Shown: in pieces, positions 2-33,752 of the stretch
How the letters are laid out: each line of letters starts with the position of its first letter
Position numbering within the stretch: the first letter of the stretch is position 1
From: Escherichia coli
Lineage (GTDB): Bacteria; Pseudomonadota; Gammaproteobacteria; Enterobacterales; Enterobacteriaceae
Direction: 5' to 3' (one strand)
Assembly: GCF_013122565.1 (NCBI RefSeq)
Contig: NZ_CP053258.1
Length of the DNA: 64,000 bases
Made by a program: the position numbers and the translations under genes
Notes under the pieces: model-generated
Database searches by the model: none
What the model was told of the DNA's origin: nothing
Seen by the model: the letters and a program-made list of their open reading frames with translations, nothing else

Positions 2-1054
2 TATGGTTCCTTCTATCTGAATGGGACCTGGACGGACTACTGGGTTACGAATGAATCACAGAGTAGTTTTGCGTTTGGTTACAGCAACGGCTTTGACTGG
101 GCCAGCTACAGCGTCAGCCTGCAACGAACCTATGATGAAGACAATAACAAAGATGACTCTATCTATCTCAGCTTGACCATCCCGCTGGACAAACTGTTTG
201 GCCGCGATAGCCGCGAAGGGGGCTTCAGAACGCTCAATACCAGTGTCAACAGCGATATGAAAGGCAGCTCGCAATATAACGCTAACGCCACCGGCTACAG
301 CCAGGACAACCGCTGGAACTACAGCGTCAACACCTCCTATAACGCAATGAAAGAGACGGAGAGCCTGAAAACCATCAGTGGTTTCACCAGCTATGAGTCC
401 CCCTGGGGAACCCTTTCCGGTTCCGTCTCCGCCAGTAGCGACCACAGTCGTCAGTATGGCGTGAGTACCGATGGCGGCTTTGTGCTACATCGCCACGGGC
501 TCACGTTTAGCAACGATAGTTTCACCGACTCAGACACGCTGGCGCTGGTCAATGCCCCCGGCGCGAAAGGGGCGCAAATCAACTTTGGCAGCAGTACCGT
601 GGACCGATTTGGCTACGGGGTGACCAGTGCGCTTTCTCCGTATCACGAAAACACCGTCGCCCTCAACGTAGACAACCTGGATGAAGATGTAGAGCTAAAA
701 AGCACCAGCACCGTTGCGATCCCACGCCAGGGTGCCGTTATCTTCAGCCATTTCGACACTGACACCGGGCGTTCCGCCATTCTTAACCTGCTGCGCAGTG
801 ATAAACAGCCCGTACCGTTTGCTTCCGATGTCACGGACAGCCGTGGGCAGTCCATCGGCACGGTTGGGCAAGGGAGCCAGGCTTTCGTTCGCGGCATTGC
901 CGACGAAGGGGATCTGGTGGTTTCCTGGTATGAAAAAAATAGCCAGAAACAGTGTCGCATTCACTACCAGATACCGCCCTCTCCCACCATGACGGGCAAA
1001 ACTATCGTATTAAACGCCGTGCCCTGCACCCTGCAATCACAGGAGAGGAAATGA
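2..1054 (+). CDS. htrE: Outer-membrane fimbrial usher, C-terminal part (5' end lies upstream of the window)
   Basis: Frame is open from position 2 with no stop before the ORF-track start at 173; translation resembles usher C-terminal domain; followed by fimbrial subunit genes. Confidence 0.85.
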   Translation, partial: YGSFYLNGTWTDYWVTNESQSSFAFGYSNGFDWASYSVSLQRTYDEDNNKDDSIYLSLTIPLDKLFGRDSREGGFRTLNTSVNSDMKGSSQYNANATGYSQDNRWNYSVNTSYNAMKETESLKTISGFTSYESPWGTLSGSVSASSDHSRQYGVSTDGGFVLHRHGLTFSNDSFTDSDTLALVNAPGAKGAQINFGSSTVDRFGYGVTSALSPYHENTVALNVDNLDEDVELKSTSTVAIPRQGAVIFSHFDTDTGRSAILNLLRSDKQPVPFASDVTDSRGQSIGTVGQGSQAFVRGIADEGDLVVSWYEKNSQKQCRIHYQIPPSPTMTGKTIVLNAVPCTLQSQERK

Positions 1055-1623
1055 GATTCTTTTTACGGTTAATCCTGTTACTGACGACGCTGCTCAATGC
1101 CTCGTGGGCGTTGGCCGTCAATATTTCGGTTAACTTTACCGCGACGATCAAAGAGACCACCTGCGCCATGACGGTGAGCGCACTCAATGGCGCGAATCTT
1201 AGCGGTGACTCGGCATCAGAGAACTACTTTCTGGATTTACCCACAATGGGGGTTTCCGATATCACCAATAAAACGTCCAAAACCGAAGCCAGCTTTAAGC
1301 TATTACCGATTAACTGTAATAACTACATCTCCAGCATGTCGATGACCATTGGCGGTAAACACAGCGGTTATACCGACACGTTGCTGGTGAATGATTCCTC
1401 GGTTACAGGAGGAGCCAGTTACATTGGCGTGGGCTTTAAACGGCTTAATGACGATGACAGCCTGCGGTTTAAGGTGGATGGAACGACGTCAATTAACTGG
1501 ACACGCAATGACATTGCCAATGGATTTGATATTACTGGAATAGTTCGCCGGACAACGAGTTCTTACAACATGATACCCGGTCTGGTTCAGACAAAAGCGA
1601 TATTCGTTTTTACTTATAACTAA
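1051..1623 (+). CDS. yadM: Fimbrial subunit-like protein
   Basis: ATG at 1051 overlaps htrE stop (ATGA), preceded by GGAGAGGAA SD; signal peptide MRFFLRLILLLTTLLNASWA; ORF-track start 952 judged over-extended. Confidence 0.8.
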   Translation: MRFFLRLILLLTTLLNASWALAVNISVNFTATIKETTCAMTVSALNGANLSGDSASENYFLDLPTMGVSDITNKTSKTEASFKLLPINCNNYISSMSMTIGGKHSGYTDTLLVNDSSVTGGASYIGVGFKRLNDDDSLRFKVDGTTSINWTRNDIANGFDITGIVRRTTSSYNMIPGLVQTKAIFVFTYN

Positions 1624-1635
1624 CAGGGATGGTGT

Positions 1636-2232
1636 ATGAATTATCAACGCATAATTGTAGCGCTATTGTTAATCATCGGAATAAATACGCAATGCCTGGC
1701 TGGCTCCAGTTCGTTGAACGTGACGGTGAGGACAACCGTTACCGCCAGTACCTGCACAGCAGAGCTTCACAATGCGCAGGACCTGCAAGCGACAACAATT
1801 GATATTGGTGATGTCTATCTGAACGAACTTGCAAATAAGACTAAATATCAGAATTTCAGCCTGGTGTTTTCAAATTGTGAAGGCTTAGCCAAAGATCAGG
1901 CGACCGTCACACTTTCTCCGCAAACAGGCTGCGATGGTGCATCCAGTACGGGTGGCGGATTTCGCAACGCACTGGCCTCCAGCGACAATGATGCGGCAAC
2001 CGGCGTATCGATTGAAGTATGGACGACCAATCAGCCGGAAGGTCAGGGAAGTGTGCAGCTAAACTGCAAGACAAAACCGACCAGTATTGTCGATCTGACG
2101 GGCGCGTCAGGTGCGAACGTTGTCCACTGGTGGTTAAGCTCCAGAATTGTCGTCGCCGCGGATAACACTATCGCCGATGTACGTGCAGGGCAGTTCTCCA
2201 CCAACGCTGTCTTTTCAGTAACCTATGAGTAA
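1636..2232 (+). CDS. yadL: Fimbrial subunit-like protein
   Basis: 198-aa ORF with signal peptide, fimbrial-subunit-like C-terminus (VFSVTYE), operon context. Confidence 0.8.
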   Translation: MNYQRIIVALLLIIGINTQCLAGSSSLNVTVRTTVTASTCTAELHNAQDLQATTIDIGDVYLNELANKTKYQNFSLVFSNCEGLAKDQATVTLSPQTGCDGASSTGGGFRNALASSDNDAATGVSIEVWTTNQPEGQGSVQLNCKTKPTSIVDLTGASGANVVHWWLSSRIVVAADNTIADVRAGQFSTNAVFSVTYE

Positions 2233-2238
2233 ACGACG

Positions 2239-2811
2239 ATGAAATCACGTTTTCGACTGTTCGTTTCCGGCTTATGGTTTATTACAGCGGCCTGTATTGC
2301 CAACACCAATATTAATATGACCGCCAACGTTGTCAGCACCAGTTGCAAAGTCACCCTCGACAATAGCGGCAGCATTGATTTAGGCACGGTTAATTACGAC
2401 TATCTGAACACGAATACTGCCGTGGATCGCGTTTATACCGGTGGTCAGGCGTTCTACATCACCGTCAGTGACTGCGCGCAGATGGCGGGTAAAAATCCTT
2501 CCCGTCTTACGGTGAGTTTTACGCCCGTCGGGGGTACCCTCGGCGCAACTAATCAACAGGTTTTTGCCAATCAGGCAGCCGATGGCGCTAAAAACGTCGG
2601 CATCGTAATTTTATCCACCCAGGATGCGCAAAGTATTTTCAATGTGCTGGATACCCACGGCCAATCGCAAAGTATTTACCCCGTGAGCGCGGATCAGCTA
2701 GCCAATGCCACCTACCATTTTTATGCACGGATGCAGAAGATCGACCTGGCGCAAGCCGCCACCAGCGGTGTAGTGCGGGCCAGTGTGTTTGTCGGTGTTT
2801 ATTATGAATAA
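2239..2811 (+). CDS. yadK: Fimbrial subunit-like protein
   Basis: 190-aa ORF with signal peptide and C-terminal VFVGVYYE strand typical of chaperone-usher pilins. Confidence 0.8.
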   Translation: MKSRFRLFVSGLWFITAACIANTNINMTANVVSTSCKVTLDNSGSIDLGTVNYDYLNTNTAVDRVYTGGQAFYITVSDCAQMAGKNPSRLTVSFTPVGGTLGATNQQVFANQAADGAKNVGIVILSTQDAQSIFNVLDTHGQSQSIYPVSADQLANATYHFYARMQKIDLAQAATSGVVRASVFVGVYYE

Positions 2812-2837
2812 CGTTTTACGTTCTCAAGGATGATGAA

Positions 2838-4058
2838 ATGAACCGTTTCCGATTACTAAAATGGGTCAAAACTCTGCTGATTTTGCTGCCCATATATTCA
2901 GGCTATCTCCAGGCTGCAAATACACTGGTTGTCGGCAGTAAAGCTACCGCTGACGGTAATGGTAGTAATAAAAACAAAGGTCCCGCTGGTGATGGTTATT
3001 CCACAACCACTTTTACCACTGGCAACAGTCAGATAGTGATCGGGCGGGCTACAACTCTTCAATACAGTAATATTAAGCTACAGTTGCAAGCCGATACCGC
3101 AGGGAATGGCAATACCGGCGCGATTTACTGCGCACCGGGCGGCATGGGGGGGCCTATTACCCTGGAGAGTCATTTCCTTAAAGCACCCTACGTTTTTGAT
3201 AACCACCAGCTCTTTAAAACCAACATACAAGGGCTGTATTTCACCATGCGCATGTATAATCTCTGGTCATACGCCACCTCTTCACCGGATGACTTTTATG
3301 TCGGGGATGCCGAGCAACAGACGCTTAACTTACACTCAACGAGCTGTCCAGGCGATCTTGGCTGGTATCAACAGCTTGGCGGTCTGGTCTCTAATATTGA
3401 TATCGACTTTTATAACGACGCTACCTTTGACCCCAGCGCCAGCGGCAGTATTGCCCTGCTGAGTGATACCACCTATCACTACTCACTGAAAAACCTGTCC
3501 CCCGGGGGAAATCTCAATACCCATACTATTTTCCAAACCTTCAATATGGGGAATGTCACATTAACCTCTCCAACCTGTTCGTCGGCGATACTCTCCGGCA
3601 ACAGCGTCAGTAAAGGCGATACGGTAGGACTGGGCGAATACAGCTCGAAAGAGGTTATCGACGGCCTGAGCGGCGTGCCTTTTTCAATTGTGCTGAAAGG
3701 GTGTTATCGGGTAACAAATATTGATGTCAAACTGACCACGGGAGCCCCTGCGGTATCAACGTCACTATTGGGCAACTCGCTGACAACCGATGCCGCCAGC
3801 GGTGTCGGCGTAGAAATTAAAGGCGAGGCCAACTCGCATTATCCTGAAGTGGTGCTCAAGCCAAACGACGCCTCCTCAATCTATAAAGCGTATGGCGATA
3901 ACCCGGAAACCTCTAACGGTATTATTGGTAACAATGCTTCGGGTTCGCCTGCTGACCAGACGCTGAATTTTACCGCGACGCTCAAGCAGGATGGTAATCA
4001 GCAAATCCGGGGAGGAGAGTTCAAAGCAACGGGCGTCTTCTCCATCACTTACCCCTGA
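2838..4058 (+). CDS. yadC: Fimbrial tip adhesin-like protein
   Basis: 406-aa ORF, signal peptide, two-domain size typical of tip adhesins, pilin-like C-terminus (VFSITYP). Confidence 0.8.
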   Translation: MNRFRLLKWVKTLLILLPIYSGYLQAANTLVVGSKATADGNGSNKNKGPAGDGYSTTTFTTGNSQIVIGRATTLQYSNIKLQLQADTAGNGNTGAIYCAPGGMGGPITLESHFLKAPYVFDNHQLFKTNIQGLYFTMRMYNLWSYATSSPDDFYVGDAEQQTLNLHSTSCPGDLGWYQQLGGLVSNIDIDFYNDATFDPSASGSIALLSDTTYHYSLKNLSPGGNLNTHTIFQTFNMGNVTLTSPTCSSAILSGNSVSKGDTVGLGEYSSKEVIDGLSGVPFSIVLKGCYRVTNIDVKLTTGAPAVSTSLLGNSLTTDAASGVGVEIKGEANSHYPEVVLKPNDASSIYKAYGDNPETSNGIIGNNASGSPADQTLNFTATLKQDGNQQIRGGEFKATGVFSITYP

Positions 4059-4175
4059 GTAAAATACCGGCAGCTAACCCTGCCGGTTTTGACCACAAAG
4101 GGCTAACACTCATCACCCACATCCCCTACAATGCCCTCATACTATTGATGATATTTATGGCTAACAGGGGTTATG

Positions 4176-4970
4176 ATGAAACCGACCACCATCTCCTTAT
4201 TGAACAAATACAAACAAGAAAAAAAACGCTTCGCCACCATCACAGCCTACGACTACAGCTTCGCCAAACTGTTTGCCGATGAAGGGCTGAACGTGATGCT
4301 GGTAGGTGACTCACTGGGCATGACGGTTCAGGGCCACAACTCCACCCTTCCCGTTACCGTCGAAGATATCGCCTATCATACCGCTGCCGTACGTCGCGGT
4401 GCGCCAAACTGCCTGCTGCTGGCTGATCTGCCGTTTATGGCGTATGCCACGCCGGAACAAGCCTTTGAAAACGCCGCAACGGTTATGCGTGCCGGTGCCA
4501 ACATGGTCAAAATTGAAGGCGGTGAGTGGCTGGTAGAAACCGTACAAATGCTGACCGAACGTGCCGTTCCTGTATGTGGTCACTTAGGTTTAACCCCACA
4601 GTCAGTGAATATTTTCGGTGGCTACAAAGTTCAGGGGCGCGGCGATGAAGCGGGCGATCAACTGCTTAGCGATGCATTAGCCTTAGAAGCCGCGGGGGCA
4701 CAGCTGCTGGTGCTGGAATGCGTACCGGTTGAACTGGCAAAACGTATTACCGAAGCACTGGCGATCCCGGTTATTGGTATTGGCGCAGGCAACGTCACTG
4801 ACGGGCAGATCCTCGTGATGCACGACGCCTTTGGTATTACCGGCGGCCACATTCCTAAATTCGCTAAAAATTTCCTCGCCGAAACGGGCGACATCCGCGC
4901 GGCTGTGCGGCAGTATATGGCTGAAGTGGAGTCCGGCGTTTATCCGGGCGAAGAACACAGTTTCCATTAA
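4176..4970 (+). CDS. panB: 3-methyl-2-oxobutanoate hydroxymethyltransferase (ketopantoate hydroxymethyltransferase)
   Basis: Recognised PanB sequence (MKPTTISLL...EEHSFH); start taken at second Met, alternative ATG at 4173. Confidence 0.95.
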
Positions 4971-4981
4971 GGAGTCACGTT

Positions 4982-5833
4982 GTGTTAATTATCGAAACCC
5001 TGCCGCTGCTGCGTCAGCAAATTCGCCGCCTGCGTATGGAAGGCAAGCGCGTGGCGCTGGTGCCTACCATGGGTAACCTGCACGATGGCCATATGAAGCT
5101 AGTCGACGAAGCCAAAGCCCGCGCCGATGTGGTCGTCGTCAGTATTTTCGTTAACCCGATGCAGTTCGACCGCCCGGAAGATCTGGCTCGTTATCCACGG
5201 ACCTTGCAGGAGGACTGCGAGAAGCTAAACAAACGTAAAGTAGATTTAGTTTTCGCCCCTTCGGTAAAAGAGATCTACCCGAACGGTACAGAAACCCACA
5301 CCTATGTTGATGTTCCTGGTCTTTCCACCATGCTGGAAGGTGCCAGCCGTCCGGGACATTTTCGCGGCGTTTCGACTATTGTCAGCAAGCTGTTCAACCT
5401 GGTCCAGCCGGACATCGCCTGCTTCGGTGAAAAAGATTTTCAGCAACTGGCGCTGATCCGCAAAATGGTTGCTGATATGGGCTTTGATATTGAGATTGTC
5501 GGTGTGCCAATTATGCGCGCCAAAGACGGTCTGGCGCTGAGTTCCCGTAACGGTTATCTGACGGCGGAACAACGTAAAATTGCGCCCGGTCTGTACAAAG
5601 TTTTAAGTTCGATTGCCGACAAATTGCAGGCTGGCGAACGGGATCTCGATGAAATTATTGCTATTGCCGGGCAAGAACTGAATGAAAAAGGCTTCCGCGC
5701 CGATGATATTCAGATTCGCGATGCCGACACGTTGCTGGAAGTCTCTGAAACCAGCAAACGGGCAGTGATTCTGGTAGCCGCCTGGCTTGGCGATGCCCGC
5801 CTGATCGACAACAAAATAGTCGAACTGGCGTAA
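4982..5833 (+). CDS. panC: Pantothenate synthetase
   Basis: Recognised PanC ([18 protein letters not shown]...); GTG start 11 bp after panB. Confidence 0.95.
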
Positions 5834-5839
5834 TACTTA

Positions 5840-5875
5840 ACTGGCGCTACGGCTGATGGCGCCAGTTATTAATTT
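5840..5875 (+). terminator. Candidate intrinsic terminator after panC
   Basis: Inverted repeat ctggcgc...gcgccag (5841-5847 / 5859-5865) followed by T-rich tract, immediately after panC stop. Confidence 0.5.
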
Positions 5876-5928
5876 GCCCTACGTCATGGCGATGACGTCT
5901 GTAAGTGATTATTCATATCGCTGGCAAT

Positions 5929-6110
5929 TTAGTTAGAGTTAATTAGCTTATCAATCTCTGTAAGAGGTAAAGTTGTCACCTCTGCAACGTCTTCCCGAGA
6001 CATCCCTTTACTTAGAAAACGCTGGGCGAATTCCTGTCTTACCTTCTGGAGTTCCTCTTGATATCCCTTCTGAAATCCCTTCTCTTCAAACCACTGCGCC
6101 AACGTCTGCC
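5929..6110. repeat. Copy 1 of tandemly duplicated rpnC 3'-end (tail-encoding) segment
   Basis: About 85% nucleotide identity to 6207..6360 by eye, with 6-bp and 24-bp indels. Confidence 0.7.
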
Positions 6111-31838: not shown

Positions 31839-31869
31839 GAGTTCCTGTCTTAAGCCACTTGCCGAAGTC

Positions 31870-31886
31870 AATTGGTCTTACCAATT
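31870..31886. promoter_or_regulatory. PdhR operator at the pdhR promoter
   Basis: Perfect palindrome aattggtcttaccaatt (reverse complement AATTGGTAAGACCAATT) about 30 bp upstream of pdhR start. Confidence 0.8.
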
Positions 31887-32290
31887 TCATGTCTGTGACG
31901 CTAAAGTAACAAAGTATTCACCTTATGTCCATACAGGTTTTGATTGAAATCATGAAACTGTGCACATTTTAACAACTTGACATATATAACGTTTCAAAGT
32001 TGTAACTATGCACAAATGTAGACTTTACGTAGGAAAGGGATTTTTTAACGATTATTAAACTATAAAAATCCGAATTGAACCGATTCACTTACCAATTTTG
32101 TGATTTTTAATTCAGTTAAAACGAATTTAAATTCATTCTGCATATTGAGAGGGGTTGAGGCTGAGATTTACAAACGGTTTCTTTTTAAGCAACTCATCTT
32201 CAACCATGCATAAAGCGGGTGCATTCGCTGCCGCATACCATTATTCTTGATCTGACGGAAGTCTTTTTGTAACAATTCAAACTTCTTTGA

Positions 32291-32308
32291 TGTAAACAAA
32301 TTAATACA
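32291..32308 (+). promoter_or_regulatory. Candidate TyrR box in the aroP promoter region
   Basis: tgtaaacaaattaataca resembles TGTAAA-N6-TTTACA (left half exact, right half 4 of 6) about 70 bp upstream of aroP start. Confidence 0.35.
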
Positions 32309-32378
32309 ACAAACGGAATTGCAAACTTACACACGCATCACTGCGTAGATCAAAAAAACAATCACCGCACGAGGTTTC

Positions 32379-33752
32379 ATGATGGAAGGTCAACAGCACG
32401 GCGAGCAGCTAAAGCGCGGCCTTAAAAACCGCCATATTCAGCTTATCGCGCTGGGTGGCGCGATAGGGACAGGACTATTCCTGGGTAGCGCCTCCGTAAT
32501 ACAGTCCGCAGGGCCAGGAATTATCCTGGGTTACGCCATTGCTGGTTTTATCGCCTTTCTGATCATGCGTCAGCTGGGTGAAATGGTGGTCGAAGAACCT
32601 GTCGCAGGCTCCTTTAGCCACTTTGCTTATAAATACTGGGGCAGCTTTGCTGGCTTCGCTTCTGGCTGGAACTACTGGGTACTGTACGTTTTAGTTGCCA
32701 TGGCAGAGCTGACTGCTGTGGGTAAATACATTCAGTTCTGGTATCCGGAAATCCCAACTTGGGTTTCTGCCGCCGTGTTCTTTGTGGTGATTAACGCCAT
32801 CAACCTGACCAACGTAAAAGTGTTTGGTGAGATGGAGTTCTGGTTTGCCATTATCAAAGTTATTGCGGTAGTAGCGATGATCATCTTCGGCGGCTGGCTG
32901 CTGTTCAGTGGTAACGGCGGTCCGCAGGCAAGCGTTAGCAACCTGTGGGATCAGGGCGGTTTCCTGCCGCACGGCTTCACCGGGCTGGTGATGATGATGG
33001 CGATTATCATGTTCTCGTTCGGTGGTCTGGAACTGGTGGGGATCACCGCAGCAGAAGCTGATAACCCGGAGCAAAGTATCCCGAAAGCAACTAACCAGGT
33101 TATCTACCGCATCCTGATTTTCTATATTGGTTCGTTAGCCGTTCTGCTCTCACTGATGCCGTGGACCCGCGTTACCGCCGATACCAGTCCGTTTGTGCTG
33201 ATCTTCCACGAGTTAGGCGATACCTTTGTGGCGAATGCGCTGAACATCGTGGTACTGACTGCGGCGCTCTCCGTGTACAACAGCTGCGTATATTGCAACA
33301 GCCGTATGCTGTTTGGTCTGGCACAACAGGGTAACGCGCCAAAAGCGCTGGCGTCTGTCGATAAACGCGGCGTACCGGTTAACACCATTCTGGTGTCTGC
33401 GCTGGTTACAGCATTGTGCGTATTGATTAACTATCTTGCTCCGGAATCCGCATTTGGCCTGTTAATGGCACTGGTGGTATCCGCACTGGTGATCAACTGG
33501 GCGATGATCAGTCTGGCGCATATGAAGTTCCGTCGCGCCAAGCAGGAACAAGGCGTGGTAACTCGCTTCCCTGCTCTGCTTTATCCGCTGGGTAACTGGA
33601 TCTGCCTGCTGTTTATGGCGGCGGTACTGGTGATTATGCTGATGACCCCAGGAATGGCGATTTCGGTATACCTGATCCCGGTATGGCTGATCGTGTTAGG
33701 TATCGGCTATCTGTTTAAAGAGAAAACCGCCAAAGCCGTAAAAGCGCATTAA
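32379..33752 (+). CDS. aroP: Aromatic amino acid:proton symporter (APC family)
   Basis: Recognised AroP 457 aa (MMEGQQHGEQLKRGLKNRHIQLIALGGAIGTGLF…). Confidence 0.95.
   Translation: MMEGQQHGEQLKRGLKNRHIQLIALGGAIGTGLFLGSASVIQSAGPGIILGYAIAGFIAFLIMRQLGEMVVEEPVAGSFSHFAYKYWGSFAGFASGWNYWVLYVLVAMAELTAVGKYIQFWYPEIPTWVSAAVFFVVINAINLTNVKVFGEMEFWFAIIKVIAVVAMIIFGGWLLFSGNGGPQASVSNLWDQGGFLPHGFTGLVMMMAIIMFSFGGLELVGITAAEADNPEQSIPKATNQVIYRILIFYIGSLAVLLSLMPWTRVTADTSPFVLIFHELGDTFVANALNIVVLTAALSVYNSCVYCNSRMLFGLAQQGNAPKALASVDKRGVPVNTILVSALVTALCVLINYLAPESAFGLLMALVVSALVINWAMISLAHMKFRRAKQEQGVVTRFPALLYPLGNWICLLFMAAVLVIMLMTPGMAISVYLIPVWLIVLGIGYLFKEKTAKAVKAH

Follow-up and report, generated by a model that had tools for sequence, protein, structure and literature searches.

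Within the 64-kb stretch of Escherichia coli DNA analysed here (hereafter the window), pdhR on the minus strand and aroP on the plus strand diverge from an intergenic interval of exactly 540 bp (31839-32378). A spacer of this size is large for E. coli. The G+C content of 100-bp segments starting at 31900 to 32100 was 0.25-0.32, compared with 0.5-0.6 in the flanking genes. The initial annotation had described the same gap of 540 bp with an AT-rich centre, and its coordinates and sequences were all correct. The interval aligned without gaps to positions 121552-122091 of strain K-12 with 98.9% identity, which allowed window coordinates to be converted (K-12 coordinate = 122092 + 31838 − window coordinate), while PdhR was 100% identical to the K-12 protein over residues 1-228 and AroP was 99.8% identical over the aligned residues. 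K-12 MG1655 thus presents the same locus in another strain, with the same genes, the same 540-bp length and the same PdhR box, TyrR boxes, P3 -10 element and ARG boxes, and it differs from the window by only about six point differences. No gene or RNA is annotated within the aroP–pdhR interval in the RefSeq record of K-12. The exact sequence of the region is also found in the pig isolate PE164. The features discussed below are collected in Table 1.

Table 1. Positions of known, putative and candidate elements in and around the aroP–pdhR interval (window coordinates).
Feature	Position	Strand	Basis or detail
pdhR coding sequence	31074..31838	-	ORF and K-12 annotation; start codon at 31836-31838
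pdhR 5' leader, 58 nt	31839..31896	-	Start A at 31896, from the 5'RACE string
PdhR operator palindrome aattggtcttaccaatt (= AATTGGTCTTACCAATT)	31870..31886		Documented PdhR operator
Published promoter island 121694_343 of K-12	31894..32236		PMC3661553 Table 1, converted through the gapless alignment
pdhR core promoter	31903..31931	-	-10 TACTTT 31908-31903, 17-bp spacer, -35 TGGACA 31931-31926; placed from the mapped start
FNR/CRP-type site TTGATTGAAATCAT	31940..31953		9/10 match to TTGATN4ATCAA
Conserved blocks upstream of pdhR	31955..32028		TTTTAACAA 31967-75, TTTCA 31992-96, TGTAAC 32001-06, TTTAC 32024-28; conservation
Segment exclusive to usp-negative E. coli	32029..32208		Replaced in usp-positive strains by a divergent version and PAIusp
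Candidate Cra (FruR)-type operator TGAACCGATTCA	32076..32087		11/12 match to TGAAWCGWTTCA
Candidate ARG-box pair (ArgR operator)	32099..32137		Cores TGATTTTTAATTCA 32101-32114 and CGAATTTAAATTCA 32122-32135, 21 bp apart
Conserved block ATTTACAAACGGTTTCTTTTTA (22 bp, ATTTAC…TTTCTTTTTA)	32166..32187		Conservation
Conserved blocks CATAAAGCGGGTGCATTC and GCATACCATTATTCT	32209..32247		Include the P3 -10 (TGGTAT, minus strand, 32240-32235)
Marbox-like site	32221..32235		Inside the conserved blocks around P3
aroP P1/P2 zone	32247..32310	+	Putative P1 -35 TTGATC 32247-52 and -10 TAACAA 32270-75; P2 about 21 bp downstream
Strong TyrR box tgtaaacaaattaataca (= TGTAAACAAATTAATACA)	32291..32308		2 mismatches to TGTAAAN6TTTACA
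Weak TyrR box CGGAATTGCAAACTTACA	32314..32331		4 mismatches; 5 bp after the strong box
aroP Shine-Dalgarno GAGG and ATG	32371..32381	+	CACGAGGTTT conserved at least 90%
aroP coding sequence	32379..33752	+	ORF and K-12 annotation; ATG at 32379; protein begins MMEGQQHGEQ

The palindrome to which the initial annotation had drawn attention just upstream of pdhR is the documented PdhR operator. In genomic SELEX data (PMC7660256), the strongest of all PdhR targets is AATTGGTaagACCAATT, a 14/14 PdhR box whose centre falls at K-12 122052 (window 31878). Apart from this operator, no perfect match to AATTGGTNNNACCAATT (the 17-bp palindrome AATTGGTnnnACCAATT) occurs in the window, and 100 shuffles of the window yielded none; both half-sites were retained in 75/75 other species, variation being confined to the 3-nt centre. 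The pdhR transcript was mapped by 5'RACE to the A ending GTATGGACATAAGGTGAATACTTTGTTACTTTAGCGTCA (...TTACTTTAGCGTCA), 58 nt before the ATG (PMC2759082), and we found this promoter string on the minus strand by sequence match, its terminal A falling at 31896. With this start, the PdhR box spans +11 to +27 of the transcript, just downstream of the start in a roadblock position. The -10 element was invariant in 75/75 species and the -35 element in 73/75. Immediately upstream, the FNR/CRP-type site was retained in 74/75 species; relative to the mapped start it is centred near -50.5, neither a canonical class I nor a canonical class II distance, and single-motif matches for FNR and CRP were no better than chance at the scale of the window. 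FNR ChIP-chip gave a peak at K-12 121966 (window 31964), marked as a known target (PMC1802558); Crp and Fnr were given as regulators of pdhR (PMC2759082), and the action of FNR on both pdhR and aroP was discussed by Federowicz et al. A CRP-like match at 31959-31974 was discarded, its left half not being conserved across species. We also noted an exact 11-nt direct repeat, CTTACCAATTT, at 31877-31887 and 32088-32098 (211 bp apart); the right half of the PdhR box supplies the first copy, and the second adjoins the Cra-type site. As a second PdhR site this copy was rejected: it is only a half-site and is not conserved outside Escherichia, so it probably reflects chance or a lineage-specific auxiliary half-site.

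At the other end of the interval, the TyrR-box-like site reported upstream of aroP turned out to be the strong member of a pair of TyrR boxes, one strong and one weak, to which TyrR binding is established (Rihtar et al. 2020; PMC7142922). As summarized there, aroP has two promoters, P1 and P2, with P2 located 21 bp downstream of P1, and a divergent promoter, P3, whose sequence overlaps that of P1. When TyrR, together with an aromatic amino acid, is bound at the two boxes, it draws polymerase to P3 and P1 is thereby shut off, a mechanism for which Wang et al. (1997, 1998) are cited. The same paper reports that the P3 -10 element was tested by mutation, and that TyrR binding and cofactor-dependent regulation have been published for K-12 and S. 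bongori. More broadly, aroP falls within the TyrR regulon across Enterobacteriales (PMC5343134). The deletion series of Rihtar et al. puts the weak box closer to aroP and the strong box closer to P3, which identifies the previously annotated site as the strong box, and in the window this box indeed sits between the weak box and the P3 -10. It was the only match with two mismatches or fewer in the window, where about two are expected by chance; the motif alone is thus weak evidence, and the TyrR assignment is carried by position, conservation and the literature. The GTAAA...TACA portion of the strong box was kept in 69/75 species, the weak box was retained in 58/75, and G-N14-C is present in both. 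Both binding sites named in the initial annotation are therefore confirmed as real and previously documented.

We placed the P1 and P2 hexamers tentatively, from the sequence, and the spacer from the start of this zone to the strong TyrR box was 44 ± 1 bp long in 76/76 sequences. The centre of the strong box lies about 71 bp upstream of the putative P3 start, a distance that fits class I activation by TyrR, here activation of P3 with indirect repression of P1. At mtr and tyrP, where class I activation is related, the activated promoter is productive, whereas P3 is non-productive in usp-negative strains. Compared with the known P1/P3 switch of aroP, in which a strong box adjoins a weak one as it does here, nothing differs. 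Around P3, the two conserved blocks enclose a marbox-like site, and a RamA ChIP-seq site, GCATTCGCGGCCACA, has been reported in the aroP<>pdhR region of Salmonella (PMC10268841).

For the cross-species comparison, one genome per species with PdhR was scanned, giving 80 loci from Escherichia to Serratia. Divergent aroP was found upstream of pdhR in all 79 loci for which the flank was available. The spacer measured 524-653 bp in 78 of 79 regions (the window and 77 loci), with a median of 537 bp, the other locus having 1,978 bp. In Klebsiella and Raoultella (loci L068 and L072-L078) the aroP leader contains about 100 bp more, after window position ~32350, and this insertion between the TyrR boxes and the Shine-Dalgarno sequence accounts for their spacers of 640-653 bp. 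Identity to the window was then calculated across the 75 non-Escherichia species, using 4-fold degenerate sites of pdhR and aroP as the neutral baseline (0.48 and 0.51, respectively). Against this baseline, the PdhR box reached 0.99, the pdhR core promoter with its spacer (31899-31935) 0.96 and the strong TyrR box 0.80, values that point to purifying selection on these three elements. Identity was 0.75 in the weak TyrR box, 0.81 over 31936-32018, 0.73 over 32166-32250 and 0.48 over 32019-32165 as a whole. The comparison shows that the region is ancient and forms a mosaic of invariant blocks. Long invariant runs were also present in the neighbouring pdhR-aceE spacer, so conservation of this kind is typical of the operon rather than exceptional. 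In that spacer (30914-31073), the aceE-proximal ~115 bp was almost invariant across 65 species and the pdhR-proximal ~45 bp was free to vary in sequence and length, a pattern that fits the known internal aceE promoter and leader.

Between the two promoter modules, the AT-rich centre contains several further candidate sites. The arms of the Cra-type site, TGAA-N-CG-N-TTCA, were kept in 68/75 species, most variants differing solely at the two N positions, and the site was also kept in usp-positive E. coli. Motif and conservation both suggest that it is a Cra operator. In Kim et al. (PMC5888115), pdhR is a Cra ChIP-exo target and Cra binds downstream of two pdhR promoters. The candidate site lies 185 bp upstream of the mapped pdhR start, and the published placement is not an obvious fit to it unless leftward starts such as P3 are counted. 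Next to the Cra-type site, each core of the candidate ARG-box pair has one mismatch to TGAATWWWWATTCA (TGAATwwwwATTCA core), and these cores were two of only three matches with two mismatches or fewer in the 64 kb. In 62/76 sequences the distance from the Cra-type site to the best ARG-box pair was identical, and the pair scored better than 95% of shuffles in 60/76. An ArgR ChIP-exo study found a double peak-pair upstream of the aroP promoter (Cho et al.; PMC4381063), and we infer that these peaks correspond to the ARG boxes at 32101-32135. Together with the FNR ChIP peak mentioned above (PMC1802558), they constitute further binding on record for the centre. ArcA and SdiA have also been found by SELEX to bind the aroP–pdhR region, and our consensus search for IHF returned no site within it. 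Five conserved blocks matched no factor (31967-31975, 31992-31996, 32001-32006, 32166-32187 and 32209-32226). Searching the literature with the sequences of the sites turned up nothing but unrelated primers.

The centre had also been proposed to hold additional promoters or nucleoid-protein sites, and both suggestions are borne out: P3 lies inside it, and the interval is an entry on the list of promoter islands of Panyukov and Ozoline (2013; PMC3661553), where H-NS binding is reported from Grainger's data (H-NS column 'G'), one of three data sets tabulated. The listing uses a PlatProm-type criterion, namely unusually dense promoter-like signals over at least 300 bp, whereas a plain sigma-70 consensus scan of 31700-32500 found no promoter-like site against 1.7 expected. 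The true promoters of this region are therefore poor matches to the consensus, and the island label depends on a different algorithm. While most promoter islands are in horizontally acquired DNA, the one in the window is vertically inherited and conserved across Enterobacteriaceae. We conclude that the centre is a conserved array of sites rather than a loose spacer.

Taken together, we consider it very probable (about 0.92) that the interval is the shared control region of the divergent pdhR-aceEF-lpd (leftward) and aroP (rightward) units, built from two promoter modules and a site-rich centre. In the pdhR module, a sigma-70/sigma-38 promoter would initiate transcription at 31896, PdhR bound to the perfect palindrome would block it until released by pyruvate, and an FNR/CRP-type site is located just upstream of the promoter. 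At aroP, the strong and weak boxes would be occupied by TyrR, for which aromatic amino acids serve as cofactors; TyrR would recruit RNA polymerase to the leftward P3, and polymerase held there would exclude a second one from P1, the overlapping major aroP promoter. The centre contains a Cra-type operator and an adjoining ARG-box pair for an ArgR hexamer, in a sequence AT-rich enough to score as an H-NS-bound promoter island. The steps involving PdhR, TyrR/P3, ArgR and FNR were demonstrated by others in K-12 and are carried over to the window by near-identity, whereas the Cra assignment, the P1/P2 hexamers and a role for fixed spacing are suggested by motifs and conservation. The finding is already known and adds no new biology, since the control of pdhR, aroP and Usp is all in the literature. 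The region nonetheless matters in that it ties a central metabolic switch, the regulation of the pyruvate dehydrogenase operon, to the uptake of aromatic amino acids, and in that it provides the promoter of the Usp genotoxin in about a fifth of E. coli genomes. What the comparison brings is a family-wide footprint map in which the seemingly empty AT-rich centre is assigned to Cra-type and ArgR sites; this map is useful for annotation and for the design of promoter constructs, and it is not surprising.

The only modestly new point concerns spacing, of which we found no mention in the accessible literature. The PdhR box and the -10 element were 33 bp apart in 75/75 species, the -10 element and the FNR-type site 37 bp apart in 74/75, the Cra-type site and the CTTTTT block 105-106 bp apart in 65/75, and the pdhR -10 and the P3/P1 core 338-341 bp apart in 68/75. 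Distances between blocks were thus held to ±1-2 bp, even where the sequence in between had drifted at a neutral rate. One explanation is that 32136-32165 and the other gaps are pure neutral filler, their constant length reflecting a low indel rate and no function. The low identity of these parts is what such filler would show, as the central part as a whole is at about the neutral level (0.48, as above) and the 78 bp that follow the Cra-type site, up to the next block, show a mean pairwise identity of only 0.38. The length of this gap, however, was constant to ±1 bp in 69/76 sequences, and that of the 44-bp stretch ahead of the TyrR box in 76/76, whereas non-coding controls from the same loci varied widely, with only 26/76 aroP leaders within ±1 bp of the median and 14/66 sequences within ±1 bp for the variable part of the pdhR-aceE spacer. 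We therefore regard neutral filler as rather unlikely, and favour a site-rich control region in which the spacing of sites is itself probably under selection.

A bolder version of this reading is that the entire stretch of 420 bp reaching from the PdhR box as far as the TyrR boxes forms one geometry-locked nucleoprotein assembly, which may include FNR/CRP, Cra, a TyrR hexamer with the P3 polymerase, and an ArgR hexamer bending or wrapping the ARG boxes. Such an assembly would, if real, physically couple the output of aroP and pdhR by wrapping, looping or transmission of supercoils. Two observations were counted in its favour: the distances held to ±1-2 bp in about 70 of the 75 species, and a 10.5-bp period of AA/TT dinucleotides in the centre (32019-32180). 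The z-scores of the period are inflated by shared ancestry; among six distant representatives, none was significant singly at 10.5 bp and only the phases clustered (R = 0.94, p ≈ 0.005), and the ARG boxes themselves contribute part of the signal. The periodicity is thus suggestive only, and we hold a single locked assembly to be speculative and improbable.

A different view of the conserved blocks would be that they belong to a structured leader, or to a small RNA or small protein that has escaped annotation, carried for instance by the leftward P3 transcript. Transcription from P3 does run leftward into the centre, and in island-bearing strains this promoter drives usp (PMC7142922); moreover, conservation is unusually continuous over 31899-32018, and Kim et al. 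describe two promoters for the pdhR unit (PMC5888115). However, the blocks agree with the consensus sequences of known operators, the length of the spacers changes by ±1 rather than in steps of three, and, as noted, nothing is annotated in the region in the RefSeq record of K-12. An Rfam scan of 31000-33000 with E-values up to 1 gave no match, and a scan of the region for intrinsic terminator-like sites was equally negative. When folded, the pdhR leader, the putative P3 transcript and the aroP leader were no more stable than their shuffled counterparts (z of -0.18, -1.39 and +0.57, respectively). ORFs wholly inside the region were at most 44 aa long, with no conserved small ORF among them, and a 24-aa ORF behind P3 was rejected, its ATG not being kept in the other genera compared. 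An RNA gene or small protein is accordingly very unlikely, and the blocks are better read as regulatory sites.

The same interval behaves as a two-allele locus in E. coli. The aroP–pdhR region was present in 5,423/5,426 complete E. coli genomes; 4,364 of them carried the central segment 32029-32208 and 1,059 (~20%) carried usp, the island standing in place of the central 180 bp, which together account for all 5,423 genomes with the region. The island contains usp (annotated as a TssD/Hcp fusion) and repeated immunity genes. PAIusp, its insertion site between aroP and pdhR and the driving of usp by P3 are known from Rihtar et al. (2020; PMC7142922) and from the earlier Nakano/Kurazono work; the layout is the same here, with the window representing the empty allele. 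On the pdhR side of usp-positive strains, the first 190 bp were 98% identical to the window and the next ~160 bp were diverged but collinear. On the aroP side, identity was 62-66% over 32209-32308 and at least 90% from 32309 onward. Comparing positions 820-5965 of the locus of E. coli Ecol_AZ162 (L005) with window 32029-32310, we found the 22-bp block ATTTACAAACGGTTTCTTTTTA on both borders of PAIusp (L005 1150-1171 and ~5750-5771). Neither the 62-66% flank on the aroP side nor the presence of this block on both borders was found in the accessible text of Rihtar et al. Given the diverged, collinear pdhR side and the 62-66% identity on the aroP side, the island seems to have arrived together with part of the donor's version of the same region, and the border pattern suggests either recombination through conserved flanks or Campbell-type integration. 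The short allele, being collinear with the region in other genera, looks ancestral rather than a scar.

The last alternative traces the AT-rich centre to horizontal transfer, as a relic of foreign DNA and perhaps a scar of usp-island loss. It might draw on PAIusp occupying this very locus in the 1,059 genomes, on a degraded usp homologue there in one Superficieibacter genome, on the link of promoter islands with mostly foreign DNA (PMC3661553) and on the low G+C content of the centre (0.25-0.32), but it is extremely improbable and was rejected. The centre is collinear across 75 other species, in which its length and the order of its blocks are the same. Its similarity to the island is not significant (best matches of 13-17 nt, E of 0.05 or worse), and usp-positive strains retain their own diverged copy of the blocks on both sides of the island.

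Some other arrangements were observed at the locus. The 1,978-bp aroP-pdhR spacer belongs to Superficieibacter sp. 1612_C1 (L060 5020-7000) and contains two ORFs that align to residues 1-185 and 224-386 of Usp with 76-78% identity. They represent a broken usp homologue that lacks the nuclease end and lies at the same locus in the same orientation. Within E. coli, the segment 32029-32208 was more variable than the rest of the spacer, with identities of 80-90% in 181 genomes and 90-95% in 309, and three copies of it were located on plasmids. Finally, in E. coli CFT073 (L002 2682-3895), the shared sequence is interrupted at intergenic position 142, ~180 bp upstream of pdhR, by an inserted IS3-family transposase that lies between the promoter module of pdhR and the usp island.
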